Positions 121 through 63,022 are shown, counted from the whole stretch's first letter. The stretch is DNA of 63,022 nt, filler included, from Sluysia triapertura (GCA_046118255.1; 5 parts of 5 records of this genome joined end to end with filler, not necessarily neighbours in it); one strand, 5' to 3'. The notes: generated by a model from the sequence alone, not told the origin. Numbers and translations are program-made.

Positions 121-800
121 TCAAGCAACAACAAAATTCCAGAAAATTTTTAAAAGTTTTAAAACAATTATCTTTGTGGTAAGATTGTAAAGAATTTAAA
201 ACCACGTACTAATGTAAGATTCTGTTATATTGGTAAAACTTGTAGTGCACAAGTAAAGCGAAGTTTAGAAATTCATTAAAGTTGCTGACGATTTGATTGT
301 AGTTTTACTAGAAAAGAAATAATGTCGGATAAACTGTTTTAGATTTAAGTAAATTAAGAATGTATCAATTTGAATATAAAGAATTGGAAAAATATCGTCA
401 GGAATTGTATTGTAAGATTGAAGTTACAACTGGTGATGCTGATAGTTTCTGTTTAAAATGCACAAATGTTAATTTAGATACTTTATTAAATGAAATGATT
501 GAATACGTCAAATCGCGATACAAACTATCCAATGTGTAGTACTAAATTTCAAGATATAATAGGTAAATTTAAAGACGAAAGTCAGGGTGAAGTAAAATAT
601 ACTGAATGGATATTCCTTATTATCTAGTTTTACTTAATACAATAAGGCCAAAGGAGTGACTTTGAAAGGTACCAACATGAGTCATCAAGAATATAAAGAA
701 TGTTTGGAAAATAGTATCATTTATTCTGTATGACAAATCAAAATTCACTCCCAAACCCATCAATTATATACAATCAAATCAAAGAAAATTGTGGCTTATT
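121..800 (+). mobile_element. Degenerate protein-primed family-B DNA polymerase (Polinton/Maverick- or adintovirus-like) C-terminal remnant
   Basis: Frameshifted translation gives, in the correct order, NNYLCGKIVKNLKPRTNVR (motif B, NNSxFGKTxEN), VG*TVLDLSKLRMYQFEY, GDADSF (DTDS motif C), IIGKFKDES, KAKGV, HQEYKECL and HQLYTIKSKKI, all typical of Polinton-type pPolB; multiple stops and frameshifts. Confidence 0.8.
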
Positions 801-2490
801 GAAACTATTTTCTTAAAAATGACAATGATGAATTTTATGATGACTGTTTATCTTTTTCTGATTTTGATGATGATTCTTAATAAATGTTTTTTTCTTGCCA
901 TTTAAGTTTTTAATATTACTAAATTTCTATACATGCGTTCAAGATTTGTAATTATATACTACAGCCATTGTCTATTATTCTTAAAATGTAATCATAATTA
1001 CGAATATATAAGTTTTGCAATGTTGATGTTTTTCTTTATTAATTTCAGATTTTAGTTTATTAAAATTTATTTTAAATTTGTGCAAAATTTAAGCAATGGA
1101 TCGAAAACGTTATAATAAGTTATATTTTAATTAATTTCCGAATTATGATTATTTTCTTTTAAATTATAAAATTTATTTCTCACTTATAACTGTTTTTACA
1201 GTTGTTTATAAATATTACTTGCTATATATATTAAATATATAAATCATTTAAAAATAGTAACTGAAAATAAAATATTGAAATACTTTTTATGATACTTTTT
1301 TATTTCAGAATAAATAAAATTTTAAATTAAATATTTCTTAATAATATGAATATTGCAATAATTAGCTATTTTTGAAAAAATACATTAATGTTGAAAACGT
1401 CAGACTAATTAAGTTTGTAATTGGATTTTGTAATTGCTTTATAATTTAGTTTACATATTCCTTTGTGGGTTCATTCAATTTAAAGCATTTAATTTGAAGT
1501 ATTTTAAAAATTACCCTTAAAAGAGTCATTTTTTTATTGTTTTTTTTGTTTCAAACATGTTCAAACTACTTTAAAAACAATATGTTTATTATTTATAGGA
1601 GAATAATTTTCATATTTATTATTTAAAATAAAATCAATATTATGTAATTTAAAAATAAAGTGAAATATTAAGATACCTTAGTAATTTTGATACATTCAAA
1701 AATAATGTGTTCAATTTTAGAAGTGAATGATGAAAATAAAAAGTGAAACTTCTCGGAATAAATTATCATGAAGAAAACATCGTAGAAACATAAGAAGCAT
1801 GTGATTTTAATTAAAAAAGATACGTAAATATAGATAAACCAATTCAAATTAACACCTAAGTAAATTGAATGTACATGAATGAATAAATAAATTAGAATAC
1901 GACCAAACTAATATTATAAGCAAAAAGTAACTACTATACAGAAGAAATTGGCCACTTAATTGAAAAATTAAAACAATAAATGAATATAATTATTGGTATT
2001 TTGGAAAAATTCTATTATAGTACTGACTTGTATGTTATTTTAATCACAAGTGTATCTAGTTTTAGAGAATTATGTGGTCCTAGACACAATTTTATTGTAC
2101 AATTAACATTAGAGTAAGCATATTATATAAATTGAAAATTAAATTAAATCTATAAAAATATTATTAAAATATGTAGAAAGTACGGCTGTATTCATATGTT
2201 ATTTTGTAAGCATTGATTATTTATCTTCTATGTATTTTAATAAATAAATGTTTTATTTTTTTTAGTCCAAATATTTACAGGGATTTGTAACTGGAACTAA
2301 TATTTTGCACTTCTATTTCTGGCAAGCTTGAGACGGGTTAGATGTATTCACGATAACTTATAATCATACGCCTAAATTCTGATAAATTTTTTCGTAAAAT
2401 AGCAATATTGAAAAATGTTACAAGAAGTAAAAACAATTGAAAATCAAATTTTTACTAAAATCGTAAAGTAAAACATAACTGATTATAATT

Positions 2491-2508: not shown

Positions 2509-4129
2509 CACCGTAATTTTTATAATGATTTTTTAATTATTTGCATTAAAAGCTTTTACATTTAGATAACATTTTTAATAGATAAAGGTGTCTGTTCAAA
2601 ATGGTGCCATTTATTAAAGTCTAAAGTGAAATAGAAATAATAGATGATAAAAAAGAGCAAAAAGAATGGATATAATAAAATTAAATATTCCAAAATCCCA
2701 AATGTAAGAATAGATATCGAAAATGAATCGTGCATTCATTAATCAAAATTTAAAATTGAAAAATATTCATGTAATGAATAAAAGATCTTAGGGTTTTTGT
2801 CAGAGTGTAACTAAAGAGCAAAATCTCTAGAACAAACTCAGAAAGAAAAGTGTCAGAAATTTGTGCCATATTTATCTGATCATGCTTCACATAATATTCG
2901 TTCCATTCAGCAACAATTATATTTGTAATTGACGTCTGTATAGTCGTACTATTAATATTTGTTAAATTTGAATAATTAAATATATCTGAGTAAGATACAT
3001 TCGATCATGAAATGGTCCCTATTATTCGATTTTCGAGTTCTATTACTATATAATTGAGCTCTTGGTACACGCACGACAAAGCAAAATATTCTCGGCAATT
3101 TATATTGAATGTATAATTCATAAGTTTAATTATAGTATTTTTTTCTCCTTGTTTAAGGAAAGGATTTAAAATATAACTCATAATATGATTAATATTTTTC
3201 TGGTAGTTTAAAGCTACTTTTGATTTAATATTAGGGAAACATAATTAAATTCTTATCTTTTAATGTATTTTTATATATCAGAAAAATGATTTTTTTGTAA
3301 CAAGTATTTAATAAATCTATATCTTCTAAACATCATTTTTATTAATAAAATCCGATTTATATCACAAAAAATTCATTTGTGAAAATGTAAAGCTGTAAGT
3401 CGTATTATGTATTACTTTTATCAGTACAAAATTGTTTAAGTAATATTATTATTAACAATTATTACAAAAGATGTTATAAAAATATTATAATCGTTACAAA
3501 TATTATTCGAAGTAATAAATTAATTAAAAATAAATTAAAAGCAAAACTATTAATTGATTACTTTAACATTGTATTAATTATTCTAATGGAAATTATTAAT
3601 GTAAACATTAATCGATTATTTTAAAAAGGCAAATTATTAATGGATTAATAAATAATGAAATTAATATTAACGGAACTAATGCATTTTAGCTAATGGAAAA
3701 TTATTTTTGAAATCATTTTAATGCATTTGTTTTTAATTGGATAAAAGTAATATAAATAGAGCAGCCAATTGTTAAGAGGTTAATAGTCGTTTCTAATTAG
3801 TTATTTCTATTCGTTTATAATTAGAAATAACTGTTTACGTTCATATAAAACGATTGTTGAAACAAATGCAAAAAAATTATTTACGTGATATCAAGTAGTA
3901 AGTTTAATTTATATAGCAGTGCAGACACTTAAATTATATAATAGTTAAAAAATCCTTATAAAATCCTACTTGTGGGGAGGGATTTTTTATTTTTAATTTT
4001 ACAACTTAAAATTAAACTTTGGCTTTTTCTTTTTTATGATAAAGAATTTATTAATAACGTTAAAATTTTCAATTAAAATGGAACAATTTACACAAAATAT
4101 AGTAACTATTAACAAAATAGGCTTACGGG

Positions 4130-5110
4130 ATTTTAAAAACAATAATTTGAATAATGAAATAACAAGATTGAATTTTGTTATATTAACAAGAACAAAAGTT
4201 ATGTAAATATAAATAATGTTAATAAATGGTAAATAAATAATGGTATATAAATAATGTTAATAAATGAAGCTGGATCAGAATTAATAATTTCTGATTCAAT
4301 AGAAACAGAGTTAGAAATTAAAGGACTGTTTCTTTGAATAATTCGATTGTCCTTTTAAAAATGTAATTATACGATAAATTTGTAACATAACTTATTAAAA
4401 AATGAAAATTTTGGTTTTATTAAACTAACAGGTTTAGTTATTGTAAAGTTTTTGTGACACTGATATAAACCATATTGTAGCATTGTAAGTACCACATATA
4501 CATCATCTATGATAGAGGTTTTTAACTTGCTTCATTCGTTATGAATGCATTTATCCATATCTTGATTCCAATAGAACAAGTAATAATATTTATAATACAT
4601 GATACAAAAATGTATTGACATAATGTTGCCACTATACTCACATCGAATTTTACACTAACTTTAGTTGTTGAAATTATATCAAAAAACAGATTCGAAAATA
4701 TAAACATAGTATTCTGCAAACTAGATATTAAACAGAAATTTCGAATAAAATGCATATAAGTAGTTTCTAAATCTAATTCAACTAATTTGTTTCTTAATAC
4801 AAAATCATGTTTATATTATAAGTAAAAAAAGTTTCCATATGAAATAATATCCTACCAAATTTTGAGCTATTACTGCCATTATTAAGCTAATATTTAAATA
4901 AAATTGAGCCATTAAATCATGTTGTACATCATTTTAAAAAAATCCATACTATATTGATAATAATATTTAATTATAATATTAACATTTTAATTTGAAATTA
5001 TTTTCTAAATTTAAAAATGTTTTCTCATCATATATTTTGACTTTCCGTATAATTGTTAAATTTATTTAGCGGTATAATTTTCTTTCAACTCATACTAGAT
5101 CTAAATATAC
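4130..5110 (-). pseudogene. Decayed intronless accessory gene (coiled-coil plus hydrophobic segments), paralogue of 6120-6880 and 39830-40240
   Basis: 4980-5105 aligns with 6750-6875 (ELKENYT...KSK); contains the hydrophobic ORF 4522-4755. Confidence 0.45.
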
Positions 5111-6119
5111 ATTTTTGGCAAAAATAGATATACACAAAAATCGTGGTAGAAATAGTGTTAAATTACAGTTAACATAATGATTCTCAATGTCATTCAATGA
5201 ATCTTCTCCAATAAATTTCCTTACTAGCATTTGATAAATTTGCTAGAGATTATAGTTGGATATACATATGAGAAAAGTCAAATACCAGCTGAACAATTAA
5301 AATGAAACAGGAGAAAAACAATCATAAAAATCCTTTTCTGGCAAATGTTAAATATACGACTCAGTAGTTACAGGCGCAACATCTTCCATAACTAATCAAA
5401 TTTTAAAAGAAGAGATTATACAGTGAATAATACCTCATTTTGGAACTCTAACATCCATGGTAGTAGATGAGGTAGACCTATTAGGAAAATTAAGACATAA
5501 ATTTACTATCACAGAAAGAAGTGTACGATGTAATCCAAGGATTTTGATAAATTTTCCATACGATATGATAAAAAGAATATGTCGACCTTAATGAACACTA
5601 CTTGAAAACTATTCTATAACGATGCGAAAGAACGCAATGTTAGACTATGGGAATATTAAAACCAATTCTAGAAAAGGCACTACCACAGAAAAATCTCAGA
5701 TGCATTTAAATCTCTAGAGAAAATTCCAAAAATTTGTTGTTCATTCAAAACAGATTAAAGCAACTTTTAAATAAATATTTAAAAGAATTCCTGTGACATT
5801 AGAAGCGCTTTAGTGACAAGACGTGCAATTTCACTAACGGAAAATAAGCGTATTAAATTATTGTCATATTCATTACCGTTCTATCATACTCAGATAATGT
5901 AGTAACAAGTACAAAAGGGCTTTGTGCGCTTTAAATTTCTTGATTTATTTAAACGATGATAGAAAGTTTTATTATATTTTTTAATTTTGAATAAATTACA
6001 GAGTTTAATTTTAAAAGAAAGTTAGCCAAAATTTTTATCATTGTTACATTGAAATTCTTAACATATTTAATTTGGCTTTATAAACAAAAACTTTAAGCTT
6101 AATGCCTTTAACAAACATT

Positions 6120-6880
6120 AACAAATTAACCGAATAAACAAATAATTTTGTATAACAATAAAAACTAAACAAAAATGTTAACAATAAACGTGCATAAAAC
6201 GATTAATATAAAATTGTATCTCAAGTACTCATTATACTCGACATATGATAAATACAATTTTGGTAAGTACAATTTTTACACTTAACAGTTTTATTATTAT
6301 TATTATTATTAAGCCATGGTCTATTATGTTGCAAACTTTCATAAATTATAACTTGTAAAATATGTATGAAAATTGGAATCAAATTAGTAATCCCTCCACT
6401 AGACAATTTTAGAATATGATACGTCACTTTTATTATAATGAATGTTATGTAATAAATCACTCCAAATGCAAATTCGTATTTACAACAAAAATTAGTGAAT
6501 TCTGTGAAATCTAAACCACATACAAGTATATAATGAATAAAATTGAAAAAGAATCCATTTATAATATATTAATTTTGAATTATTTAACTTGTTTGTTCTA
6601 TGCGGATAAAATTCATGTGGTCCAGAAGCAATAACTTTATTAGCATACATTTTACTACTAAGTTACCAATATTGGTTATTTTTACAAAGGTTTTAATTAA
6701 TATCAATTTATTATATTAATAAACATTATGAAATTATTATATAAGTAATTTTAATTTTTGAAATTACTTTCTACGTTTATCCAATTTCTCTTTTAATTCA
6801 TGTTTTGACTTTTCGTATAATAATTGTTAAATTTATAAAATGGTATAATTTTCCTTCAGTTCATCGTGGATCTAAACATA
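6120..6880 (-). pseudogene. Decayed accessory gene downstream of an LTR-like end (7248)
   Basis: Reads IHDELKENYT..QLLYEKSKHELKEKLDKRRK*FQKLK then hydrophobic ORF 6221-6460; the reverse complement of 6670-6815 matches 40095-40240. Confidence 0.5.
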
Positions 6881-7262
6881 ACTAACAGAAATAAAAATAA
6901 AAATAATAGATATACAAGAAACGATAAATAAACATATATACCAAAAGAAAGCAAATGAACAAAAACAATCGTAACAATAATAGTAATAGTTACAACAGGA
7001 ACAACACCGGTTATCACAATAAAGGCATTATTATAACAATTTAGTATTATTATGACAATAGTTATTATTATTGCGATAATAATTATGATTATAATAATTG
7101 CATAATTCTAGTAATTATAAATTATTACGACTGTGTTTATATTTTGAATTTATCGAGTAACTTATTTAGCAATTTGTTTATGTGAGAAGTGTTGATTTGT
7201 GATGAAATGTGTTTATGATTGTGATGTGTAGATTTAGAGTTCACTACACAAACTATAAAAAA

Positions 7263-8277
7263 GTTGGAGTTATTCGTCCAAGTTTCTCACGCTGTTCCCC
7301 TCTAGTAGTAAAAAGAAGGACGTCTCTCTGAGGTTTTGTATAAATTTCAGTAAATTAAAGAAAGAAAGCAGAGAAGACTAATATTTGTTACCTCGTATTA
7401 GTGACATGTTCAATAAACATGGAATTTCCAAATATTTTACGACATTCGATTTACGGAATAGATATTGTTAAATTGTTTTATCAGAAAGAGGTGAACATCA
7501 AACTAGATTTTCTACCGAAGAATGGTTATTTGAATGTAGAAAAAGTCTTTTGACCTCAAAGGTTCATTTTTTACATTTCAGCAATAAATTAATTTTGATT
7601 TATCATTATGTCCACATATAATGGTACAAATAAGCGACATTATTATGTACGCTATAGATCTAGATATTCACTTTAAAGACATTGAAGAAGTTTTTATTTG
7701 ATTAGAAATTAAACCAACTAAATATGAATTGGCAAGAGAAAAGATCATATTTCTAGGACATGTGGTACATAAACACAGAATTTTACCAGACTCGATGAAA
7801 ACTGAAAAAGTTAAATTATTTTCAACACATACTAAAGAAAATTCATAAAAAATTCGCGATTATAGCAAAATCTCTAATCTACTTAACAAAGAAAGAATAC
7901 AATAATATTAATTAAAAATTTCATTTGGCATGATACGCATGAAAAGGCTGTTCAATCATTAAAAATAACGCTTACTATAACTCCCATTTTATGATTTTCA
8001 GATGTAAAAAACCTTCGTACTTATGACGGAAACCAGTGACCTTATCAGTGGTACTAACTACATTTAGAGGAATCGATAATGTTTTTTCGGATTATCAAAC
8101 AAGGTGGTCTGAAACTTTTCCTATGCAAGATCAAATAGCAGAAACTGTTACTTAATTACTTGAAGAAATTATACGTCAATATAGAACTCTTAAAAAATTA
8201 TTTAAGTATTAAAATTCTTAAGTATTATCAGAATACACACATCACCTTATCACCAATGCAGATGAGCTTGTGGAAAG
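7263..8277 (+). mobile_element. Degenerate, internally deleted Ty3/Gypsy pol (RT-RNaseH-integrase pieces)
   Basis: GVIRPSFS..SPLVV, KKDVSLRFCINFSKL, LPRISDMF, KYFTTFDLR, ISDIIMY (YLDD site), FLGHVV, WHDTHEKAVQSLK.TL, and an integrase remnant (TSPYH...DELVE) at the end. Confidence 0.85.
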
Positions 8278-9130
8278 TGTATTGACCAACCCAATAATTA
8301 AGAATTTTATTGCAATAACTTATAACAAAATCACTATCTAAAATCTTATCACAACGTCTTAAATCATTTCCATTTCATACTCTATGACATTAAAATTACA
8401 TAACATCAAATTCACATTCAATATCGAAAATCACCAAAGACCTACTTATGAAATTTTACTCAAAACACCGCAAACAAATTCACATTCCATAACTCTCCAT
8501 TCACCTTTCATTAAAACCTTTCCACATTTTATCTCTTCATACTCACTAGAACTATTCTCATTTTTATACATCTTGAAGTACAAATTTATTTTATCAAAAT
8601 AACCTTTACATCCAAAATCATCAATATATTTAAAATGCAGTTAAAACATTTTATTCATAGTCACATAACATTACAGTCATAAGAACATCCGTTAATATTC
8701 TATAACTATTTTTTAATATATCATAAGTGTTGCTATACTTTACTCATTTCATATCCACCAAATTAGTCTCATTTCTAAACCATCAATATACATTCATAAA
8801 TAAATTGTCAATATTCAAATTAGAATTCCTTACAAAACCTTTAACGCATATTTTAAAGTTAGTTTTAAAAGAAACATTTTATTTTACTTTCTCACATTAC
8901 TAGAATTTTAACTACACAAATTTATCAATCTTCAACATTGTATCCACATTTAGACCTCGTACCAACTTACTAACATTTTAAAATATGTTAAAAAAATATC
9001 TAAAATTTAAAGAAAGATTGTATTTTTCTTATTCATAAAAAGATTTATGCTTTCCTTTTTTATTCTCCGTATATTATCATTGGTTTATTTTATTCATCAT
9101 TATCATTATTATTTTGTTGTAATTAACATT
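8278..9130 (+). mobile_element. LTR-like sequence of the strand-biased TGTRGTGRCCAA family
   Basis: Starts TGTATTGACCAACC, ~700 bp strongly A/C-rich, conserved AAGATTTATGC motif at 9040 then an (ATT)-rich tract; relatives end at 7248, 14855, 17445, 33051 and 51939. Confidence 0.6.
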
Positions 9131-9543
9131 GTTTATTGCTAATTGTCAAATGGTAGTAGCTACCCTCATTATTCTTTATTATAGCTATTTAATGTGCCAT
9201 CAGTCGACAGACATTTAAAATCATTTTTTTTGTGTTACTTCATTAACAATCGACTGATGACAGTTAACCATGTTTTCATGTCATTCTATTGTGTTCAATA
9301 CTTCCACACTATCTGTTCTGATTGGTTAGCCAGTGACAGTACACAAATACAATTACAAAATTATTGCTAATTAATAAAAATAGTTTACGAAACTTAGTTT
9401 TTTAATAAACACAGTAAAAGGTATCTCATTGAAAAATATTCATCATGTTTTTATAAAAGAAGTTTATAAGGAGACGTAACATTTACTTAGCATAAAAAAT
9501 TTATCAATACTATTTTAACTTCTGTAATATTAAACAATCAAAA

Positions 9544-10744
9544 ATGTCGAATGATGCACTTGAAGAGAATGATGCACTTGAAGAATGTGGAAATTTTAAC
9601 GTTGACTCTTATGTAAAACTAACTAAAACGAAATATAAATGTCATGAGCTTGCTACAATTTTCAACTTGATTAATTCTGATAAGATTCTCAATAAAGTAA
9701 TTGTTGTTTTACCCATTATGTATACTGAAATGGAATATTTGCCAAAAGCAACTCATGTTGAGTTTATATCAGCTTCGTCGTTTTATGGTAAATGTAAAGA
9801 ATTCAAAAATGCCATGATCGTTACTTCTATGCCTACGTTGAGGAATATAATGAGTTACATTAATCACGTGAATGTAGTTATTAAAAATATGACACAACTT
9901 GCTGGACTGTACACCAAATCAAGTGATGGGTCTTTCTTTAGTGATGCATCTAATTTAAGTTTCGAGGTTATACATAAATCAACTTCATCTTTGTTTTTTT
10001 TCTGAGATCAATTGATGCTATTTTTACAAATCCTACTATGTTTTTATGTGACTGGTAATCATCTAAGAGGATTGTTAACTATGCTAAACAAGATACAAAA
10101 AGATATGGTTAAATATAGAAAAGATTCAACCTTTTGAGATTTTATTGATAGATTTGGAAGTAAAACTAATGCAAAATAAAATTGTACTAACTCTAGCATC
10201 TGAATCAAGCAGTGATGATAAAGATAAACATAAAATAAGTTTTAGGAATTCTCAAGTATTTCATTATACCAAATTAAGAAACAAATGAAGTACAAAAATT
10301 ATGTTTAGCAATTTGATTTTGGATCAATCAAGAAATATCAATTCACTTCGTCTAGAACAAGACTACAGTTCATCGAATTTCGAAGAGTGTTATAAATTGG
10401 CTCTCTGCTCTTATGAAGCTAATCAAGAAAACAAATGCTCAAAGTTTGGAACCAAATGCAAGGATTTATATACAATCAATGAACTACAAGAATGTAACAT
10501 CGACTATATGATCCGATCGTGACATTACATTAGACTAAACGATTTGTTTGCGAGTATTGGTAGTCAAATTACAAAGACTGCTGATGGCGCTACTACAACG
10601 CTACTTCAAGGCATTAATGCTGTCAGTAACAATAAAGTAATAGTTCATAGTGTTTGCATTGAACATATTTTATTTTTATATTTTTATTTAGACGAAGAAA
10701 CATGTTCTCAAACAAGGTGGCATAAATCGGGATCAATATTTTAA
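9544..10744 (+). pseudogene. Frameshifted intronless accessory gene with CCCH-like zinc finger (paralogue of 15245-16220)
   Basis: ORFs 9544-10005, 10301-10522 and 10544-10744 are collinear pieces; C-x9-C-x6-C-x3-(Y) at 10406-10471; AATAAA near 10758. Confidence 0.55.
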
Positions 10745-10949
10745 ATTTAAATTTTATAAATAAAACTAGTAAAACTAGATGTTATAATGCCTTATTTTTT
10801 AATTTGTTAAAAGTAATGATGATTCTCATAATTAACTTAATAAAGAAATGTTGTAATTACAATAAGTTTTTATAACGAATTTTAAAGAATCAAATTTAAC
10901 AATCACTTTTAGTTTAATAATTTCAAATGATTATAATTACTTTCTTATT

Positions 10950-12360
10950 GATAAAACATTACAGAAAGTTTTAACAATACTTTGTTAAATATAGTGAAAA
11001 TGTATGTCAAGTGGATACAAAGATATTAAACATTATCAATTTTCATATAAAAAATGCTTTTCGTTCCAAAAAGACACATTTTTATGTAATGTCCAAAAGC
11101 CATAACAGTGTGCCAATTGACTTAGATCGGTCAGAATCGCAATGCATGGATAGTCTAGATCAGGGATCGCAACATATGGCCCACGAAGGGATTTTGACAA
11201 GCTTATGAAGGTATTTGGCGGGTCTGTCAAATAACGATAATAAATTTAATAAACAAAAATTGTTTTAATATTCATTAAAATTCAATATTTAAATTAACCC
11301 ATGAATTCAAATATCAAAATGAAAATAAATATCAAAAATAAAAAATACAGAAATATTTATGAATATGATCAAAGATATGGATAATGAGTTCTCATCTCGT
11401 TTTATTGACTTTCGCTTGCACGATGATGAATTCAAGCTTCTTGCTATTTCTTTTGATGTGGAAGCGTGTACTGTATCAAAATGCTTTCAAATGGAGTTGA
11501 TTGAAATGCAATGTGACGACTTATTGAAATTAAAATTTCACTCCGACGATGTCTCTTTGCTTGATTTATTCTAATGGAAAGTATCCTAACCTAGTGAAAT
11601 TCGCAAAAAAAGATGACACATTTGTTTCGAAGTACTTACCAATGTGAGCAATTATTTTCAAAATTGAAATATACTAAAAACAATTTGAGAACAAGATTAA
11701 CCAATAGTAATTTGAATAATGTTTTGTTGATTGATACCAAATATTGAAAAGCTTTCAGGTGACAAAGAACATCAAGCTTCCAATTAATTATTCAAATTTT
11801 GGATTTTTGAATAGAAAGGATTTTTAAAATATCTTGTTTATTGTCAAATTACTTGCTTATTATTTGTAGAACTAAAATATTTTAAAGAATCTTCATTGCT
11901 TTATTCATTTTAAAAATGCTTTAGAAAAAAAGCTTTTTGATAAGCTTTTTCTTATAATATTTTTAAGAACCCTTCGGCTTGACACTCTCTCAAAAAACGA
12001 AATCCAGCCCCACTTAGCCAAATGTTGCCAATCCCTGGTCTAGATTATTCTGAAATATTAAAATCTCGATTAAACAATGCATGGATTAAAGCCGAATTAA
12101 ATATAAAACAAATACATGTAAGAAAACATAAATGGTACTATGGTAAGAAAACTAAAGCTCACAATTTTAGTAGGAGACAATTTTAATTTATAATTCAATT
12201 TCTTAAACTGATGGGACCATTTAAAGTACAATTTGAAGTGATCGATGTTACTATTCTATAAATACTTTCTATAAATTTAGAAATAAGGTTAAATAAAAAT
12301 AATACGAAAACTAAAATCATTCATAAAATTAGATATAAAATGACGGTAAAAATTACTATT
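10950..12360 (+). mobile_element. Gypsy integrase C-terminal remnant, interrupted by a hAT element
   Basis: TESFNNTLLNIVKMYV (ERFNRTL-like) before the hAT; LKSRLNNAWIKAELNIKQ..KWYY..KLMGPFKV (GPY/F motif) after it. Confidence 0.65.
11161..12037 (+). mobile_element. Non-autonomous hAT transposon (Buster/Charlie/SPIN, GTF2IRD2-like transposase C-terminus)
   Basis: TIRs CAGGGATCGCAACAT / ATGTTGCCAATCCCTG; perfect 8-bp TSD GTCTAGAT (11153-11160 and 12038-12045, central TA); remnant EFSSRFIDF..FQMELIEMQCDD..KYPNL..STYQCEQLFSKLKYTKNNLRTRLT (hAT dimerisation domain). Confidence 0.93.
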
Positions 12361-13394
12361 TATAATCTACAATCTCAAATAAACAGCAATAAAATATGTT
12401 TATTGCAAACAAACATTTCAATTTTATCATTTCGTATTATTTGGAATTAGCTAGTGCATATAAGAATCCCGGTAAAACTTTGTAGAACTAGCTTTGCGTA
12501 TTCTGTTCATTAAAGAATAATTTTCACATGTATTGCATTATTGTAAACTCTCGTGCATACATAACTTTAAAGTCGAATTTTGCCATAATAATATAGTTAT
12601 TAATTCTCATAAATGAAGTTTTTAAATACTTAAATTGTGATAAAAATGTAACCATCGCATCAGTAGTATATTATACTATGGTAACCCCATTTCTTTAATT
12701 TCTTACTCTTTTAGTGATTTTCTTGCTACTACTTTAAAAACAGTTTGACATTTTACGCATAACGAAAAAGAAAACAAACGATTACGATGGCGCCCACTAC
12801 ACAAGAAACAATTTTACTCTTGAGAAAACATAAAATTTTTCAAAACCATTCATTACATAAAACATCCAAAAAATCTAAACCATTGGTATAAATGAATTAC
12901 AACCTAAAGTCATTGCACATAGACACACTTTACAATTTTTCATTTCATATCCTTCTCACTTTTATACATTCAAGATAATGACATTCTTTGTGAATTTCTT
13001 TCAATCCGACTATTCGGAACAATAAAACCATTAATGAATAGAAAATCATTTTGCACTCAGAAAAATCAAAACCTACGCAAAATAAGTATATGTGACTTCT
13101 AGTATTCAAAACAGCTTAAATTAAAATATTTCTGAGGTAGAAAGAAGTTTACCATTTTCTTAAATATATTAATCTTTTGTAAACTAATAGCGTTTACAAC
13201 TAATAACAATTACAAACAAACTTCAACACAAATTATTAAACAAACTACTCAATATATATAAAACATAAACACAGTCATAATAATTTCATAATCATTAAAA
13301 TTTTGTTTATTATTATATTCGTTATATTATTATATTATAACGAATCTGTTATATATTATCGTTGTAACAATATCTCATTTATTGTTCTTCTGCT

Positions 13395-13494
13395 NNNNNN
13401 NNNNNNNNNNNNNNNNNNNNNNNNNNNNNNNNNNNNNNTTAATTAATTAANNNNNNNNNNNNNNNNNNNNNNNNNNNNNNNNNNNNNNNNNNNN
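13395..13494. other. Assembly gap with TTAATTAATTAA six-frame-stop spacer (also 27608-27707, 40573-40672, 51531-51630; plain N gap 52103-52273)
   Basis: Identical 100-bp N44-TTAATTAATTAA-N44 blocks. Confidence 0.97.
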
Positions 13495-14855
13495 TTGCAT
13501 CATAAATCACATATTCATCCACATCTTCCATTTTATTTAAATATCTTGGACATGATTTCTTAACTGATTTACTTACTAGATTTTCATGATTTTGGATCAT
13601 TATTAGTCTGGTTGTGAGCATCGTAACTTGTAAATAATTAACTGATAATTGTCTAGACGTTTTGTCTGGAATTTGTTTAATTTTGTCTAATTTTTAATTG
13701 AAAATTGTCTGAACTGCTAATTATCTGAAATTTGTTTTTTGAGTATAACAATCTATTGAGAATTGAGTCTAGACAGGAATTTTTAAATTGTGACTAAACA
13801 TATAATTTTTTAAGTGTGCTGAACAAAATCTTTTTTAATTGAGTTGCTAATTTTAACTAGTCTGCCAAATCAGAGTGTTTTAACGTTAATGAGAATAATT
13901 TGGACTCTGATTGGGCGATAATGAATTGATTTATATTTAACTGCAAACCATCATCAGTAGTGAGGTGCAAATGACTGAGATGAATGAGATGTCACTAATG
14001 ATGATGGTGACAACAAATTTTAATTTAAATCAATTTTTACAAAAATGATTAATAATAATAATAATACTAAAAACACTGTAATAATAATGATAATAATAAT
14101 AATAATGATGAAATTACTGTTATTATTATTATTACAAAACTTTTAATAAAAATAAAAGAAAAACGCATAAATCTTGCAAATCTTAGACATGAACTTTCTG
14201 TTATTCTTTATCTTTCTACATATATGAAATAAAAGGAATAAGACAAATGTTGTACTGTGAAGGAACAACAACTAAGTGTATGATGTATCGTTTGTGGTTG
14301 TTGCTTCACAGTATAATAATGAAATCTTTAAAGTTATTTGAAATTTAATTTGAAAATGTGAAATGGTTAAGGTTGCAAATGAAATGAAGAGTGTTAGAAT
14401 AATTTATTGAAACTTATTGAAACTTTATAATTTGAAACAAGATTTATACATTAAATTGAATGGTTTTAAATGCTTGTTGAAAGATTGAAGTTATTTTAAT
14501 TTTGAATGATGATTACAAAATAAGTCCTAGTATATTATAATGTTGTTACTGATAAGTATTAACGGTGAATATGTGTATGTGAAATGGGTTTGAGTTGGTG
14601 TGGTTGATTAAGGGTTTAGATGTAAATAACCTATGTTTCTGAAATAGTTGTTAGCGTTGTTTGAATGCTATTATATTTGTGAAATTTATACCGTGATTGT
14701 GATTATCGAATGTTGTATTTTGATGTTTGTGTTGGTGTATTTCGGAGGTAAAAGAAAATATGATTATTGTAAAGATTACGTTTTAGTGAAATTTGGTTTA
14801 TGTATATTAGATATGGTATTTTGATTGGGTTTGATTACGAGTGCTGATCACTACA
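13495..14855 (-). mobile_element. LTR-like end plus hairpin/CCAAT module plus start of a decayed orphan ORF, truncated by a gap
   Basis: Minus strand starts TGTAGTGATCAG, A/C-rich, AAGATTTATGCGTTT motif at ~14162-14176, hairpin 13947-14008, CCAAT inverted repeat 13864-13915, ORF remnant 13439-13621. Confidence 0.55.
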
Positions 14856-15244
14856 ATAAAAAATATAATTTATTAATGATTATACCCTTTAATTTGATTA
14901 TGACAAAAATATTTAATTATCACAAACGACATTTAATTTAAACAAAGTAATTTTAGGATATGACAGAAATATAACAACACTTAGTTTAATAATGAATTAA
15001 CTTTAAAATTATAACTTTTTAATAGCTAATAAAGTCACCATTCTTTACGATTTCAATAAATCTTAACTTTTGGTATAGTTATAGTTGAAAGATATGTTAT
15101 TTGTATTTTTATTTATAAAATGTTATAATTTTAATAAAGTTGTGATTAAAAACTTCCTTTATTGTATTTATATTATTATTAAATATTAACTCAAAATTTA
15201 AAATTTCATTATAAGCTATATTAACCATAAAACACATTGATGAA

Positions 15245-16220
15245 TTAAAGTTTTGGTATATAAACGTCTACTAGCCATGTTTTACTATCTGAAAAGATTT
15301 TAATAAAATCATTATCATTATCTAATATTAAATTAAATTTTACTTTATTAGAGTTTACATTATGATTGTTAGTTATAACTTCAGGAGTCGCCAACTTGAT
15401 GCTTTTAAATAGTTCCATGATTTGTCCATTGTTCATTCCGTTTTAGTATTCACATTTATTTCCATATTTTAAACAAACTCCTAAATCATTTGAAGAAAAT
15501 GGTCAGAAAGCAATGTCACTGATTGAATAATTCATTTTTATTTTAGCATTCTTGGACTTTATAATCTTTTTCATACACATGTAATTTATGGTCATTGTTA
15601 ATGACATTGGATCACTTTTAAATTTTTAATTTCTTTATTCATATTATCTTGATCACAGTTCATGTTTATCTGATGATCAAGAATCCAACTAATGTAAATT
15701 TTATAATATTTATAAAAATTATCAATTTTAATTTCTTTATAAACTTTTAAAATCATATTATTATATAATAATTTCACAATAAACATAGTATTATTTAGAA
15801 GAAGTTTTAGAAACATACTAATACTGTTTAAGTACTTATTGCCTTCAACATGACAATCAAAATAATGATTAACATGGTTACTATGTCTCAAGACTAGGCA
15901 TTCATTGGCTTGATAAAATTGCAGAAGAATGTTTTTACTTCTGCTGAGAGCATCCGAATTTCCTTGTTCGGCTTGAGGCGAGACTCCATCACCAAAAGAA
16001 TCTCTATCGATCATTGGTGACACTTCTTTAAGCACCATCATTAAAATTTTATCGGTTGCTAATTCTAATCCTAAATGTCTCAAAAATTCAACACGATGTT
16101 GATAAACCATTACTGATGATAATACATCAGTTATATTAGTTGAGCCAACAATATTTTCATCAGTATACAAGCCAACAAAATCCTCTTCAGCTAGACTCAA
16201 CACGATTTTGCATAATTTTG
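15245..16220 (-). pseudogene. Decayed intronless accessory gene with CCCH-like zinc finger (paralogue of 9544-10744)
   Basis: ORFs 15598-16203 and 15245-15436; between them *-x9-C-x6-C-x3-(N) at 15440-15505; shares DKIL, NHVN, E(K/Q)DY and NKV motifs in the same order as the 9544 gene. Confidence 0.55.
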
Positions 16221-16599
16221 ATCATAATTAATTACAAATTATTTTACCACGTTCAAATTTTTCCACTTTTATTTTTATTCTTTTTTGAGAAATATATATT
16301 TTTTGAATTATAAATTATTAATTTTTTGGCAACTTTTGTTATTACTCACTTTACTGATTGGTTATCCAACCAAATTTTCGAAATAATATTTTTGCACAAA
16401 TGATTTTGGTTGGATAACCAATGCAATCTGAGTATTAATTTTATCAAGCCAAAATAATCCAATTGAAGTAATCAACTGTGATGACTACCACCATCACCAG
16501 TGACTGCATAATTGTAAATGTAAAACAAAGTGTCACTGCTGATGATGCCGATAACACGACTGATTTTAGTCTACATGATTTTAATTTCATTTATACATG

Positions 16600-16810
16600 A
16601 TGATAATGATAATGATTAAATAGTAATAATAACAACAATAATAATATTATTATTATTAAAAATGAAAACGCATAATTTCTTGATTTATAGATCTTTATAT
16701 GTTACACATGATCTTTTCTTTATCTTGACTCTTTTCTCGACATATTTGGCCTACTCTAAATCTAAGATCTGTACTTAACTTCTTAAAAATTGCCTTGAAA
16801 AAGTGATTAC

Positions 16811-16856
<46 letters not shown>

Positions 16857-17445
16857 TAATAGAAGTGTAATCATTATTATTATTTCAATAAAATTGCATG
16901 ATTTTCTTGCTTTTAAACGTTATACAAGACCTTTCTTTGTTTGTTTTATGTTACTTAACATATCTAGGTTGTAGAAATGAAGAGATTTTTCGGTTTTGTG
17001 AATTTAAAGCGATAAGGTTTTTCTTTGTGACTTTACCTTCTTTTATATAATTGTTACTGGTATTCTGGCTGAAATAATTTTATTGTCTGAAGAATTATTA
17101 ATGCATAGATAGTTTTAAAACGAAAGCCTAGAATAAGGTTGATGTTAGAATGAGTAATGATGGTGTTTCGTTGTGAATGTTGATGTAATTAGGTTTTTTG
17201 GAATGGAAAGATGGAGAAATAAAATATTTTGAATTAAGATTTAATATGTTTTGATGGTTTGGAGCATTACTTTAGTTGGATATTGTGAGGTGTTGTGTAA
17301 GTGTTCTAGATGTATTTCTAGTTATGAGTTGATGGTGTTTTTTTATGAATTGACAGATTTGCGGTATATTAAGAAATAAATTTTTGTTTTGTGAATTTAT
17401 GATATTTTAATATATTTTGTTAAAGTTATATGTTTGGCCACCACA
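16600..17445 (-). mobile_element. LTR-like sequence of the strand-biased family
   Basis: Minus strand starts TGTGGTGGCCAAAC, A/C-rich, AAGAAA(T/A)T(T/C)ATGC-like motifs at ~16670 and ~16896, (AAT)n tracts. Confidence 0.55.
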
Positions 17446-18719
17446 TTACTAACTACTAAGTTTTAGCTAAATAGATTTTTCATCTTCTCAGGCTGATTTC
17501 TTTCCAAGCAGAAAGAATGACTGCTTTCAAATCCTTTACATTCGATAAACCTTCCGAACGAGTAAACCCAGGGTTTCTCAATGGGATGGCCAACTCAAAA
17601 CCCGAATTTGGTTATCTTAAAACCATTTTGTTGTCTCTTCGGAACAATGGATTGAACAATTGTCTTGTTGGAAGATCCAGTTTCGGCCTCTAATTTGACC
17701 TGCGACGAGGATGAGGAAGTCATTGAGTGTTTGAATATACTTCTGTGAGTTTTGTTTACTGTCTAAGAACACAGTTTCTTTTTTCCCATTCCAACCAAAG
17801 CCTGCCCAGACTATCACCGAAACACTTCCAAATCCATGTTTTTTGAAGTACTCCGGACTCTTCTTCAGGTCATGCCAGTAAAACTGACATCCATCGGGGC
17901 CATCAAGATTAAATTTTTTCTCGTCTCTGAATATAATTTGGTGTCATTTTAAAATTCATGATATGTACAATTGTGCCCATGTGACCCGTGCAGACTTTTG
18001 CACTGCTGTGAGTTTTGGTTTGGGCTTCCTCTTCTCATATCTTAAGTATTGGCAGTTGCCTACAACCCTTTGGACAGTTCTTATTGAACAAAGAAGCTGA
18101 TGGACCAATTTAATATGTTTTGGAGACATTTTTATCAGTGACGTCACGAAGAATGATCCTTTTGTCTCTCGATGTCAACTTTGGTTTCCGCCATCTTATT
18201 TTCTTGCCATAATTCTCGGGATCTTGAAGAAAGTGAGTGATTGTGCTTGCATCTCTGTTAATGCGACATCAACTTTCTCTTATTCCCAAATTTGTATCTC
18301 TATAGGCCGAAATTGGTCCAATTTCAATAGGTAATAATTGTTTCCCCTTTGGCAATTTAAAACAATTTTATTTGTCAAAATTTTTTAATTAAATATAAAA
18401 TAACTAACAAAAAATTATTTAAATAGAATATATTAAATAAAATTAATTACCTTTATTGACTAAAATTGACTAATTAATTAATGTATTAGTTAATTTTGTT
18501 ATAATTTTGTTATAATTAATGGTGTTATAATTTTGTCACATGTAAAAATCACATTTTAATTTTTAATTCAAATATGGCGCAGTAATTAGGTATTTATTTT
18601 AATAATATTTTACTTGTTTTCATACATGCTTCTAATAATAACATCAGAAATAAATATCATTAATAATTAATTAAAATAAAACAAAAAAACCACCGTTGTT
18701 ATATACCTGTTGTCCACTG
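17446..18719 (-). mobile_element. Tc1/mariner (Tc3-like) DNA transposon, degenerate
   Basis: TA-CAGTGG terminus at 18719-18721; transposase remnants LPKGKQL.., KPKLTAVQKSARVTWA, IFRDEKKFNLDGPDG, MIVWAGF, WIFQQDNCSIH. Confidence 0.9.
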
Positions 18720-19702
18720 TAATAGTTCAACAATCGTATGTAAAATGAAAGCTATAAACAAATTCATAAAACAATTTAAGTAGAAGAATACATTTATATC
18801 TTATAATAAATTTACGATACTTTCATTCTATCACACAAAAAACAACTAATTCAAGTATATTAGTAAATAGTTTTCAAGTGGGAAAACTATTTAGTCTTAT
18901 TATTCAGAGTTAAACTTCTAGAAATTTAAAGTATGTTTAGCTATGTTTGAGATTTTGTCATGAAGATCTTATCTCAAGTTACGAACTCATCGAAGTTGTA
19001 TTATACCCGGTCAAATAGCATTTTCTCGTTCAATTTTCATCTCAGTTATGTTTTACTATACGGCTTCAAGTTCTGACACAATAGATTATATCAGTGGTAA
19101 CCGAAAAATAAGGAGATGAATCTTTCATTTTTATATTATTTGTCATCTCAGTGTTTATTAGTATGTGTTTAATAAAAGGGTTTTATAATTATGTTAATTT
19201 TGTTAACTTAACATTTGATCAAATATATAAATTGTTTATATAAAATAATTTTTATAACTTAATCAGTATCATTTTCGTTAATTATATATCACAATTACAC
19301 TCGTTCAATGTCAACCTTTCATAACATCCCTTAACAGAATATTAAAATCAATATCACAAAATAAATTTTCCATTAAGTATAAAACATTAACCCCAAAAAA
19401 ATAACGAAGTATATTTTAAAATTAAAGCCTTTTGGGCCTTTGATTTTTTTACTGAAGAATGATTTTAAAAATGATTTTGATCCTTATTAAATCGGAGTTA
19501 AACGATTTTCAGTGTTTTAACTTCAAAAGTTAAAACGCCCTTAACAAAAAATAACTTACTGTTCAATAAAAACATTCCAGATAACATAATTGCTTGAAAC
19601 CGAGAATAACAAAATTATAAGTTACGTCCTTTGTTGTCTTTTGTTATTCACGAAAATTTCTAATTATTAATTGTGCTTTGTGATTCAACTACAGCAAATA
19701 AA

Positions 19703-20816: not shown

Positions 20817-21079
20817 TGTGGTGATTCAAACCCTCATATATTACAATCACAAAAGAAATAAAGCTACTAAATAAACAACAAACTTGCATTTTAAAATTAC
20901 TTTTGCTTACTACTATCACTAATGCTATTTAATTATTTAATTATTATTAATTTCTATTATATTTTATTGTTAATCATATCATTAATATTATTATTGTTAT
21001 TACTACCATTATTATTATTATCATTATTATTATTAACTTAAATATTATTTATTTATATTATTATCACTATTATCAATAC

Positions 21080-21118
<39 letters not shown>

Positions 21119-24100
21119 TACTATTATATTTATTTATAATAAAAATACAAAATAAATTAATTAAAATAAACTTAAATTGGTTTCAGGACAAAATAATTTT
21201 TGGTTACTCAAATCAATTTTTATGCTATGTTTGTATGATTAGTCATAATGACCGTCGACATGGTACTAATAATAATTACACGATACTCTTAATATTAATT
21301 CACTTAAATTTATAAACTATTTTCGAAACTCTTCAATATCTAGAGATTACCGTTAGTCTGACACCATAAAACTTTTGCTTATTAAAGTTTTCCACTTTAC
21401 TTAGCTTTATGCCTCCTGCTTCTACAAATATTCATAATAACTGTAAAATATGTAAAATATTTTAAAAACTTTTTAAAATTAAATGACACAATTCAACAAA
21501 TCACCAAATTTCCATTTCAACATACGTAATCACCTTTAATCTTTTCAAAATCTCTAACCAACCTCTCAAACATTATTATCCACAATTGTAATAACCTCAC
21601 CTTCATATTCACTCAAACCACATCAGTCACATATATAAACTAAACGTACAATATAAAACACATTCCAAAACCACCTAATAAAATCCTCATTCATACTATG
21701 ACAACTAAATTCCAAATAAGTTCCATTAATAATAAGCACAAATTCAACACCACACGCAACAAAACTACATTTTACTTCAGATGAAGGTCCAGAATTTCCA
21801 AAATAGATACCTTTCCACCTACAGCATCAATGAAGAAACAAATTCTCGTGATACAAAATCCTAAAAATCACCTCTAAAATTAAAAATACCAACATTAACG
21901 TCTTTCACACTATCCAAACGACAAAACCGGCATCCTCCATTTATCTTTTCACAAGAATGTTTGGTTCTTGCATAATTCTCAACCTCTTCGTAGCAGTCGC
22001 ACCTTCCACAACATTTTCTACCCGGTAGTAGTAGAAACCCTACAGACATTAACATAGAGAATAAACTAGATAATGCACAATCTTAAATTAATGCCACAAT
22101 ACTCTTACCATTTTTTCCTCGATAATAGTAGTACTCCCAACACTTGGTGTATCGTTGAAGCAGATCTTAAAACACGTGAAATAAAGGAATTCTGCAGCGT
22201 ACTTTTTCCATTTAGGCCACAAATCCTTAAGAAAAAAGATGGTTCTATCAGGACATGCGGTGACTGTCGAATGCTAAATAATCCGTGCTGCTTCTTACCG
22301 ATATTTTACACCGTTTTCGCGACTACGTATATCGACGCCATCATAGTCGCGTCAAAAAATGTAACATATAGTGATCATCTGAACAAAATTTCCCAAAGAC
22401 TTGCGGACAATAAACATACTAAAACCGAAGAAATAAACATACAGGCGAAGATTGCATCTCTAGACCTAACATCTCTGCTGACGACACTGAACCTTTGCCA
22501 AGCCGCATAGAGTCCATAAGGAACTTTTCGCAACCTCTAACTGATATCCAAATGTTAAGCTATTTACCCAGACTTTTTCAAACGCTATCTCAAGTAATTA
22601 AATGGACCGAAACCTCATTACAAGCTTTCCAAGAGATTAAGGGTTCTATTGCCCAGATGCAAGATTTGGCCTTTCCATTTCCAGACATTCATCCATAACT
22701 AACTATTAACGCATCAAACACGGCATTAGATGTTGTTCACATCAAATCAAAATGACGTTCCCATACCCACAAAATTATATTCCTATAAGATACTCTGCTT
22801 TTGTTTGCGAACTCTTGTATATTTTCAATAATACACTACAGATATTTACTGATACCAGCGAAGTTTATCTTCAGGACTAACCGCAAGCCCTTGTTCACTT
22901 TTTCCATCGCCACAATAAGGGCACATTAGTTTTGATATTTAACACACCTGGGACACGAAAACGTGGTTGCCGACATGGTTATCACGGGTAAAGATTAATA
23001 GCATTAAGGTTTCACAATGGAAGATCTTCCTGGTAATCCCACTTCTGCCGAATATATTAACGTTTTAGAATAACAGCATTACTACGTGAAAGTATCTACA
23101 TCGATCATCAGCTTTTAGGAATTTCATGTCCAACCTCAGCTTTCGAATACATACATAACACAACACACCGTGGAGCTAAAGCTACGTATCAATTACTGCA
23201 TTTCAAGATCGTGTGGCCTTTTATGCACAAAGACTGCTTAACTTGTTAGTTCGTCAAGATTGTACGACATACAACATTGTCATTTACCCACAGGCCATTT
23301 ATATGGATATCTTTGATATCCTTCCATAGCATAGATTTTGAGTCTGAACTATTTAACAGTTTATTAAAACATCTGGGAAGTTATAGACTCAGAGCTACCG
23401 CCTATTACTCACAATCTAGCGGGATTATAAAACGATTCCTTAGAACGCGAGAAACCTCTCTGCGTTCCATTTCTTTTAAATTCTACCATTAATATTACTG
23501 GTATGGAGAAATATCAACAGTATCAACACTAAGATGTCCAACGAGGTATTTTCTCCGCATCTTCGAGAATATTTCTTCAACCTTGATGCGGTGCCAGCTC
23601 ATAACGATTCCTTACGTCTTTTTTGTCCTAAAGGAATTGCCGACAAAAGAATATGTTTGATTAACGCACGAAAATCCAACTTCTTTACAACTACGTTACT
23701 CGGGTCCCAATAAGGTTCTTAAAATATATTCCGACAACCAAACAGCAACTATTTCTGTCATAGGGCACTCGTGGACGGTAAACTGGTGCAAATTAAAGCC
23801 AGCACGACAACCAACTCACTCATTCACGTCTGTTTATCACATCGGCTTCATTCAATGATGCCCAACAATAATAAAATACAAGTTACAACAACAGATCAAA
23901 TTCATAGTAAACATTCAAGTTACAGTCCCATATTAATCATTTTGTCCTGCGTTTCAAAGGGGGTTGTGTGACGATTCAATAGAAATAAATAAATAACTAC
24001 TAAATAAACAACAAACTTACATTCAATTATCCATCATCTTACTTATTACAACTTTTACTATTACTATTTTTACTTACTAATATATTACTGCTATAACTAT

Positions 24101-24180
24101 TTCTAATTATTATAATTAGAATAATTATATTAATTATAATAATAATTATTAATTTCTCTTGTATTCTATTATCAATATTA
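20817..24180 (+). mobile_element. Two-LTR Ty3/Gypsy retrotransposon, heavily deleted and degenerate
   Basis: 5' LTR ~20817-21247 (TGTGGTGATTCAA...GTCATA) and 3' LTR from ~23968 (TGTGACGATTCAA) share CTACTAAATAAACAACAAACTT; PPT AAAGGGGG before the 3' LTR; pol motifs KKDGSIRTCGDCRMLN, YIDAIIVAS, WTETSLQAFQEIK, INASNTA, YSAF..ELL, GHENVVAD, H..HRGAKAT..VWP..C..C, FESELF..TAYYSQSSGIIKRF. Confidence 0.88.
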
Positions 24181-24185
24181 TTATT

Positions 24186-24250
<65 letters not shown>
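24180..24250. repeat. (CAT)n microsatellite; (AAT)n tracts also at ~16812, 21080, 27538, 45232, 52470, 53739, 59232
   Basis: Directly visible trinucleotide runs. Confidence 0.95.
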
Positions 24251-24252
<2 letters not shown>

Positions 24253-24309
24253 ATTTCAGGTCTGGATAGTGGATCCATACAATATTTAATATTAATGTTA
24301 TTATTTAGC

Positions 24310-30618: not shown

Positions 30619-31449
30619 ATAAATATAATTTTTACTATGTTTTGTTTTGCCTAATTTTTTATAATAATTTTACGAGCTAAATTTTAAAAAATTAATTGAT
30701 ATTTATTTTTTTTTGTATCTAGTGATTTTTGTTTTTTTATTAATTAGCGTGCTAAATTTAAATTAAATTATCTGAAAAATGCAAGTAATAATATTTTACA
30801 TATTTTGTAATAATTAGGAAGACATTCATGTTACAAAGGAAGATCAAGAACGTATTAATACTTTTGCTAAACATTCAATAAAGATTAAAGAGTATAAAGA
30901 AGAATTTAATTTTTTGTTTTAATATTATAAATTATTTCAATGATGTATGAATTTTGAATCTTGACAAAATTTTCTTTTAAAAATGTTGATAATTAGTGAT
31001 GCAAAAGTCGGAAAGACATTAATTGTAACCCATTATATCCACGACACATTTCAAGATCATCCACGCACATGGAATGACTAAAGAAACTCTAAAAATCGTT
31101 GCAGTCTTAATCGAAGATCCTACAAGCCATATTTGGGGATCAACTTTAAATGTAGCCAGTTCTACTTTCGCAATCAAGAAAACCTCAGATTTAAATTTTA
31201 AAAATCAAATGCTGAACTCTGTTTATGATGAATTGGATGTTACTAGAGCCTTGCAGAATGGAGAAGTGTTCAATTTCTCTGATATCGTATTGAAATTATT
31301 ATATTTTGATATTGTTATCCACTTTATCATTAAGTTGAAGATAATTCAACACCTAGTACTGAGCAATGATAGCTCTAGTCCAAAGAGATGTTTACGCTAC
31401 TTAATTTTTAAAGTTAATCGAATGTATAAGCTTATTCATTTTAGTTATG

Positions 31450-62833: not shown

Positions 62834-62949
62834 TTGAATTAAATCATCTCTACTAAATTGGGTTTTGAAATCGGAATAATTCGTTCTACATTTTTCTAAC
62901 GATTGTAACTGCTTCTTTGCTTCAATACTTTCATCATCAAATGATAAAA

Positions 62950-63022
62950 ATGAAAATAAACAAAAAAATAGAAGGATAGATTAGTGATAAGGATAAAAGG
63001 AATAGTAATAATGATAACAATT
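62950..63022 (-). repeat. Dispersed repeat fragment matching 27760-27820
   Basis: Reverse complement attgttatcattatta...tttatccttatca...tccttctatt...ttgttt aligns with 27760-27820. Confidence 0.6.

Follow-up and report, generated by a model that had tools for sequence, protein, structure and literature searches.

A dead, multicopy WASHC4/SWIP fragment joined to a degenerate CCCH-type finger, and its likely distant paralogue, as possible LTR-element cargo in Sluysia triapertura

The window analysed here, a whole stretch of 63,022 nucleotides from Sluysia triapertura (GCA_046118255.1) made of parts of five records joined end to end with filler, is AT-rich, animal-type DNA with scaffold gaps and abundant transposon debris. 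It holds two broken genes, named gene A (plus strand, 9544-10744) and gene B (minus strand, 16221-15245). The explanation that fits best, which we rate at even chances as a whole, is that gene A is a dead, multicopy fragment of the WASH subunit WASHC4 (also SWIP or KIAA1033) joined to a degenerate finger of the tristetraprolin type, that gene B is probably a distant paralogue of gene A, in any case as far as its back half is concerned, and that both were likely accessory cargo of a long terminal repeat (LTR) element, lying behind an LTR-like head. An earlier, sequence-only reading had described the pair as distant paralogous cargo genes for a CCCH-type zinc-finger protein, possibly with a dead helicase-like domain.

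All the motifs quoted in that reading were found at the expected places. In gene A these are SDKILNKV (9676), KVIVVLP (9694), AMIVTSMPTL (9811), INHVN (9859), EQDY (10355), the cysteines at 10406, 10436 and 10457, SNNKV (10625) and the stop at 10742; in gene B they are TDKILMMV (16056), SNHVN (15882), EKDY (15572), NSNKV (15355) and the stop at 15247. The motifs are spread over different frames, and no single open reading frame (ORF) spans either gene. Gene A has a 153-codon open frame from an ATG, changes of frame near 10000 and 10110, and internal stops at 10056, 10286 and 10520, while gene B has a 207-codon open frame without an in-frame start, changes of frame near 15600 and 15545, and internal stops at 15505 and 15445. 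Both copies in the window are dead and produce no protein. Single-sequence structure models reached a mean predicted local distance difference test score (pLDDT) of 39.8 and 32.7, too poor for use.

As judged from profile matches, the front of gene A derives from WASHC4. It matched the Pfam family WASH-4_N (PF14745) with an E value of 7e-11 and 41.8 bits against a gathering cut-off of 25; its two halves matched the family separately and in register, and the five other frames gave no match. For comparison, a reference set was drawn from 117 metagenome loci that a degenerate pattern built on a WASHC4 motif had picked out, from which 13 ORFs of more than 900 residues were kept, every one confirmed by Pfam as a full WASHC4. 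A profile of these 13 sequences found three colinear pieces of gene A in three frames: 9544-9996 (51.0 bits, with 0 of 1000 shuffles scoring as high), 9999-10121 (10.6 bits, 0 of 2000) and 10103-10195 (12.3 bits, 0 of 2000). Jointly, the pieces correspond to about residues 50-265 of WASHC4 (some 215 codons, 650 nt) and are contiguous, with no intron-sized gap. The full architecture of WASH-4_N, WASH-7_mid and WASH-7_C (about 1150 residues), present in all 13 references, is not found in gene A, and a full-length profile run over 2526 chunks of the window detected neither WASH-7_mid nor WASH-7_C. Gene A aligns to each of the 13 sequences at 24-30%; it is 19-27% identical to them, against 27-65% among the references themselves, and it keeps six of the eight columns that are invariant in the reference set. 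Its end branch measured 4.2 changes per column, compared with a median of 0.58, its position in the tree being unsure.

Word-index protein searches with the front of gene A returned no relative among 59 candidates (219-699 residues), 319 candidates (269-2000 residues) and 74 candidates (550-1750 residues), a weak negative since WASHC4 itself was missed as well; no locus related to gene A was found in the viral and metagenome contigs searched. Two other identities were rejected. Clusters of the Ulp1/C48 type, suggested by a protein atlas at scores of 0.86-0.88 with low recognition, lay below threshold and are contradicted by WASH-4_N and by the WASHC4 profile, and a likeness of the fragment to the CYFIP/CYRI Rac-binding domain found no support in the PDB, Pfam or literature searched. 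The coordinates of both genes and of the features around them are collected in Table 1.

Table 1. Parts of genes A and B, the LTR-like heads and the adjoining elements, in window coordinates.
Feature	Position	Strand	Basis
Gene A front: piece of the WASHC4/SWIP N-terminus, diverged and without introns (residues 50-265 or so of some 1170)	9544..10195	+	Pfam PF14745 and own profile
Gene A back: acidic linker, EQDY, single putative tristetraprolin-type finger (Cys 10406, 10436, 10457; without fourth ligand), tail	10196..10744	+	zf-CCCH_UNK below cut-off; PDB
Gene B front: 207-codon open frame	15598..16221	-	translation; no relative found
Gene B back: EKDY, finger remnant (Cys 15475, 15454), tail	15245..15597	-	alignment with back of A; PDB
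55-nt GT..AG intron-like block in A	10637..10691	+	right after the N-K codons of NNKV; 82% A+T against 62% upstream
55-nt GT..AG intron-like block in B	15289..15343	-	same place and phase as in A; 87% A+T against 70% upstream
Ty3/gypsy pol remnant, decayed, internally deleted, directly upstream of the head of A	7250..8317	+	reverse transcriptase piece
Head of A: C-rich tract, box (about 8978-9066), ATT-rich stretch, hairpin (about 9194-9262), CCAAT word; 5' end missing	8391..9340	+	composition, box alignment, fold
Head of B: TGTGGTG start, C-rich tract, box, ATT stretch, hairpin, long CCAAT inverted repeat	16330..17445	-	fold, alignment
Third head, C: TGTAGTG start, C-rich tract, box, ATT stretch, hairpin, CCAAT inverted pair	13840..14855	-	folds, alignment to head B
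66-codon open frame behind head C, running into an assembly gap; possible third gene	13496..13693	-	translation
Later DNA-transposon insertion behind A	11161..12037		terminal inverted repeats and 8-bp target duplication; no Pfam match

Both genes carry a finger in the back half, and its ligand spacing (x9/x6/x3) is the same in the two, with codons at the lost ligand places as the sequence-only reading had described them. Three of the four ligands are present in gene A, where Tyr stands at the fourth place, and two of the four in gene B, which has a stop at the first place and Asn at the fourth. In gene A, the finger retrieved Pfam zf-CCCH_UNK at an E value of 0.003 and 17.8 bits against a cut-off of 31.1, and its eight listed PDB matches include the cytoplasmic zinc-finger protein 6nzl (E 0.08) and tristetraprolin 1m9o (E 0.43), beside three designed repeats and two trypsin inhibitors; the dTor matches, designed repeat proteins that sum tiny matches, were dismissed as an artefact. 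For gene B, two of the four listed PDB matches were TIS11d 1rgo (E 0.34) and the C3H1 protein 9y10 (E 0.55). Tristetraprolin and TIS11 are hence among the best natural PDB matches for both fingers, and this retrieval of one class by both genes weakly suggests the class assignment, no single match being significant. The two genes have a C-x2-[YF]G-x-KC core in common. In all six frames of the window, the pattern C-x1-2-[YF]G-x-[KR]C, which was picked after the data were seen, has two instances, one in each gene, against 0.025 expected from shuffles. With one core per gene there is no pair, and by this reckoning the fingers are single and degenerate, in contrast to the tandem pair of the tristetraprolin family, of which they are not members. 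The finger of gene A has a YKxxLC lead-in like that of this family, in which the spacing is x8/x5 against the x9/x6 seen here.

The back halves of the two genes are probably paralogous. They aligned in BLASTP at an E value of 0.002, a local alignment was equalled by 5 of 2000 shuffles and a frameshift-tolerant one by 2 of 300, and with three matrices 17, 56 and 68 of 3000 shuffles scored as high. When the whole genes were aligned with cheap long gaps, a setting picked after the data were seen, a chain was obtained from about residue 145 of gene A to the tail, reaching well past the finger on both sides (0, 3 and 5 of 500 shuffles as high). The equal 55-nt blocks of Table 1 are open as coding sequence too, and would mark homology of A and B whether they are intron or coding; of the 1130 GT[AG]A sites in the window, 13 have a T-rich YAG at a distance of exactly 55 nt. 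By eye, another intron common to both genes was considered ahead of the ILD block; it was dropped, as splicing it gives no coding frame in gene B.

For the front halves, paralogy falls slightly short of an even chance. The two share five separate tetrapeptides where 0.66 are expected (1 of 3000 shuffles), three of the five in the same order, and 16 control pairs of unrelated ORFs from the window gave 18 against 17.7 expected. Speaking against front-half paralogy, BLASTP gave an E value of 0.89, 1224 of 2000 shuffles scored as high (16 of 200 with the frameshift-tolerant aligner), hhalign returned a probability of 0.1%, and the alignment fails under at least 15 settings. The claim of two distant paralogues is accordingly upheld as probable for the back halves, with modest p values of about 0.002-0.02, and not by significant alignment for the front halves. 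The front of gene B as a WASHC4 derivative was rejected: the profile gave -2.1 bits (1834 of 2000 shuffles as high), the mean z over the 13 sequences was 0.3, and Pfam found no WASH-4_N. It had 0 matches in 1.84 billion representative proteins and none in viral contigs or the PDB, and its best protein atlas score was 0.79; a P2RX7_C match (E 0.04) was weak and set aside.

The copies of gene A were studied by comparing contigs of sequencing run X1 with window positions 6900-13390 at 80% likeness, a span that covers A and not B. Depth over gene A was 121-413 in six bins, compared with 10-20 for contigs unique to the place and 23-57 at 12108-12975; it is a caution against the copy count that contig depth is not copy number and that run X1 may be the window's own source. 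From a total of which 40 variants and 12 indels were listed (a further 778 variants and 129 indels exist), at least three of the listed variants lie inside A, on 12, 20 and 18 contigs, and one separate contig is 82% alike to A over 422 nt. At least three of the listed indels fall inside A; two are of 3 nt and keep the frame, at 9679 and 9701 in the WASHC4 part, and the third, which tells against a kept frame, is a 10-nt insertion near the end of A in one copy. Several distinct copies of gene A exist, and with 12-20 contigs sharing variants there and the excess of depth, the multicopy state is borne out for A.

Gene A appears to have been under coding constraint for a long time before its death, because open frames like these would not survive neutral drift down to an identity of about 25%. 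It is a point against this that part of the divergence may be the host WASHC4's own, the references being metagenome WASHC4s. The strongest rival builds on the same point: a partial WASHC4 copy and a CCCH exon would have been captured and spread passively in the style of Bs1 or Pack elements, as a functionless passenger whose divergence reflects a fast-evolving host WASHC4 and decay. That both copies are broken and lack the fourth ligand, and that no intact relative was found in the protein collections searched, agrees with such a passenger, and captured partial mRNAs are described as common (PMC5131818). Nevertheless, open frames of 153 and 207 codons with about five breaks per gene misfit neutral drift of that extent, indels among the copies of A keep the frame, and the two genes no longer align as DNA (77 of 100 shuffles reach the same score) yet retain a colinear protein chain. 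We consider the passenger explanation unlikely, if the least so of the rivals.

Regarding the carrier, an LTR-type element with the gene in a slot behind an LTR-like head is moderately favoured by the sequence features around A and B. Three heads share a common layout, in which a C-rich tract some 600 nt long comes with a box, a stretch rich in ATT, a hairpin and CCAAT words. Heads B and C, which flank gene B, yet are only 62% alike over 288 nt, align at an E value of 3e-12 (0 of 60 shuffles as high); between the boxes, the A-C and B-C alignments beat 100 of 100 shuffles and A-B 95 of 100. Upstream of gene B there is an inverted repeat of 100 nt (16339-16438), each arm of which contains CCAAT words, and a shorter one lies behind head C (13876-13915). 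The window has an assembly gap at 13395-13495. The TGT(A/G)GTG start of heads B and C is the start word of the gypsy LTR at 20817 (paired remnant 20817/23967) and of the repeat end at 7248, and this start, missing for A, together with the C-rich sense strand, resembles the paired LTRs of the window. At the head of A, 34 contigs have a loose end at 8391 and depth is 830-2600 in most bins. Directly upstream, on the same strand as A, the reverse transcriptase piece at 7310-7552 matches Ty3 reverse transcriptase (4ol8, E 1.5e-8); the later pieces of 7250-8317 were tentatively taken to be RNase H and integrase from their motifs, with no Pfam match. From these features the heads would be LTRs, and the claim that the genes are cargo of an element is likely in view of the related heads and the adjoining Ty3 sequence, the identity of the element being our conjecture.

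Several observations weigh against an LTR-type carrier. No alignment was obtained among the C-rich tracts of the three heads, and that of the hairpin and CCAAT parts is poor, with 84, 62 and 2 of 100 shuffles scoring as high. Around A or B, neither an LTR pair with target duplication nor a clear primer binding site was found, and no purine tract stands directly before the starts of heads B or C. No gag or pol was seen to follow A or B, the contigs of other copies being too short to reveal linkage, and an intron-like block on the sense strand would be awkward for an RNA intermediate. This block, shared by A and B in sense orientation, would suit a DNA-based carrier (a Maverick/Polinton, a Helitron or a Pack-TIR element, TIR standing for terminal inverted repeat), for which the LTR-like heads would be unrelated insertions or promoters; each gene also has its own CCAAT-bearing upstream region, and Mavericks are reported as expanded in some planarians (10.64898/2025.12.11.693146). 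Such a carrier is at odds with the lack of terminal inverted repeats around A or B, with heads that start with the same word as the paired gypsy LTRs of the window, and with a WASHC4 part that is contiguous and intronless over 650 nt, which makes it improbable. For Penelope-like or Terminon cargo, hammerhead ribozymes would be expected between the ORFs, and none was found, Rfam giving no match at any E value up to 1 over window positions 6000-19000.

Further sequences resembling the heads were noted elsewhere in the window. A very high-copy, short LTR-like repeat lies at 6900-7248 (minus) and 13228-13390 (plus), its copies 72% alike, with a depth of 3800-16000 and 121 contigs breaking off at 7248. 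An old gypsy-like element at 20817-24255 (plus) has an LTR pair 67% alike over 273 nt, with a purine tract before the second LTR. More C-rich heads with the TGT(A/G)GTG start occur at 32128-33051 and 51640-51939 (both minus; 158 of 225 positions alike), and the former holds two copies of the box found before A and B (0 of 300 shuffles). The box and ATT stretch can be read as a hydrophobic segment and a basic tail, and the C-rich tracts may be decayed coding sequence.

It is also conceivable, though we find it still more improbable than a DNA-based carrier, that A and B are of unrelated origin, either as two independent captures, both of which came to end on a finger of the tristetraprolin type, or as decayed members of a host multigene family in repeat-rich DNA. 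Gene B carries no WASHC4 signal, any two fingers of this class share the core, and the p values of the back halves are modest; against these stand the extension of the aligned chain well beyond the finger on both sides, the equal 55-nt block, the same kind of head and the excess of shared words. Lastly, the suggestion of a dead DEAD-box helicase followed by a CCCH finger, as a TDRD12-like piRNA mimic, which had a loose by-eye motif echo and the presence of a CCCH-type finger in its favour, is refuted for gene A and has next to no probability left, as the stretch taken for motifs Ia/Ib/II sits within the WASH-4_N match above the Pfam cut-off, the same residues align to WASHC4, no helicase family was found for either gene in Pfam (E up to 10), NCBIfam or the PDB, and the sense frames of both genes are free of Walker A and DExD/H words.

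Returning to the WASHC4-derived cargo of an LTR-type element, a history can be proposed. The element would have taken up part of a host WASHC4 message, a capture of the message type being suggested because gene A holds a partial fragment without introns, which is what would be expected of LTR-mediated capture. The captured WASH piece would then have been shuffled onto a CCCH module, and the fusion carried under coding constraint long enough for far drift from WASHC4, before the subfamilies of A and B diverged and the copies seen here later died. In the ancestral protein, AU-rich RNA would be bound by the finger, while the WASH piece, being helical, would attach to the partners of WASH on endosomes or vie with WASH for them, so that the ribonucleoprotein of the element would be steered to endosomal membranes. 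An RNA-to-endosome adaptor or decoy of this kind is a tentative idea that we regard as rather unlikely. A broader version is slightly less likely still: a family of animal LTR elements may have kept and diversified a fusion of the SWIP N-terminus with an AU-rich-RNA finger, as an accessory protein that couples element RNA to the endosomal actin machinery or poisons WASH, and this would be the first mimic of a WASH subunit from a mobile element in the searches made.

Other features of the window lie outside these two genes. The insertion behind gene A is presumably of the hAT type by its ends. A Tc1/mariner remnant at 17450-18600 (minus; DDE_3, E 0.0015) adjoins the head of B. At 30968-31300 (plus) there is a decayed Rab32/38/29-like start of 30 residues (PDB Rab38, E 0.004; Pfam Ras, E 0.02), followed by two open frames, 157 and 195 codons long, for which no match was found, and placed antisense beside a fourth LTR-like head; this may be a second captured trafficking gene or an ordinary processed pseudogene. 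The region 340-810 (plus) looked by eye, from a motif, like the C-terminus of a Maverick/Polinton DNA polymerase B, with no Pfam match. Ordinary host genes are a S-adenosylmethionine methyltransferase at 29791-30618 (plus), a membrane protein with leucine-rich repeats and immunoglobulin domains at 60373-62181 (plus) and an exon of a MatE transporter at 62270-62980 (minus).

Host-gene capture by LTR elements is already known, with a cargo mostly of env-like, nuclease, esterase, apoptosis and ubiquitin domains. In the literature searched, which covers few subscription papers, there was no report of WASHC4 as retrotransposon cargo or of a CCCH protein as an extra ORF of an LTR retrotransposon. 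If the combination of a WASH piece with an RNA-binding-type finger holds true, endosomal sorting would be a step exploited by retroelements and SWIP residues of about 50-265 would form a separable domain; the value of the case is limited by both copies being dead and by the vehicle being deduced from its surroundings.

Among the closest known systems is WASHC4/SWIP itself, described as the WASH subunit, largely helical, through which the complex is anchored on endosomes (10.1101/2022.08.16.504073). The front of gene A is colinear with it, whereas gene A holds less than a fifth of the protein, has a longer branch, is fused to a finger and is multicopy and broken. The giant gypsy elements of planarians, Burro/GYPSM1, carry the host-derived domains MATH, BIR, BCL2-like and ankyrin, some of them on an accessory ORF upstream of gag (PMC6431247). 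They are LTR elements with host-derived domains, as is proposed for A and B, and differ, by a comparison of descriptions, in that section 7 of that paper names no WASH or CCCH domain. Another example is given by the bdelloid LTR elements with their ORF3 and the small ORFs (sORFs) of the Drosophila MDG1 group, extra ORFs with their own transcripts, one of which has been linked with transfer sites rich in actin (PMC5408684; 10.1101/2025.03.14.642691; for accessory ORFs of these LTR elements see also PMC7264820). Their proteins are of other types (GDSL, DEDDy, env-like and FAST-like), and no relation in sequence to A or B is implied. Maize Bs1 and other LTR-mediated retrocopies consist of fused parts of host messages, which may stem from several genes and are carried between LTR sequences (PMC5131818). 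Those captures are young and near their parents, while the capture in gene A would be old, shows signs of coding constraint and has a probable paralogue that has diverged, and would represent an unusual case of a jumping element equipped with part of the cell's trafficking machinery.

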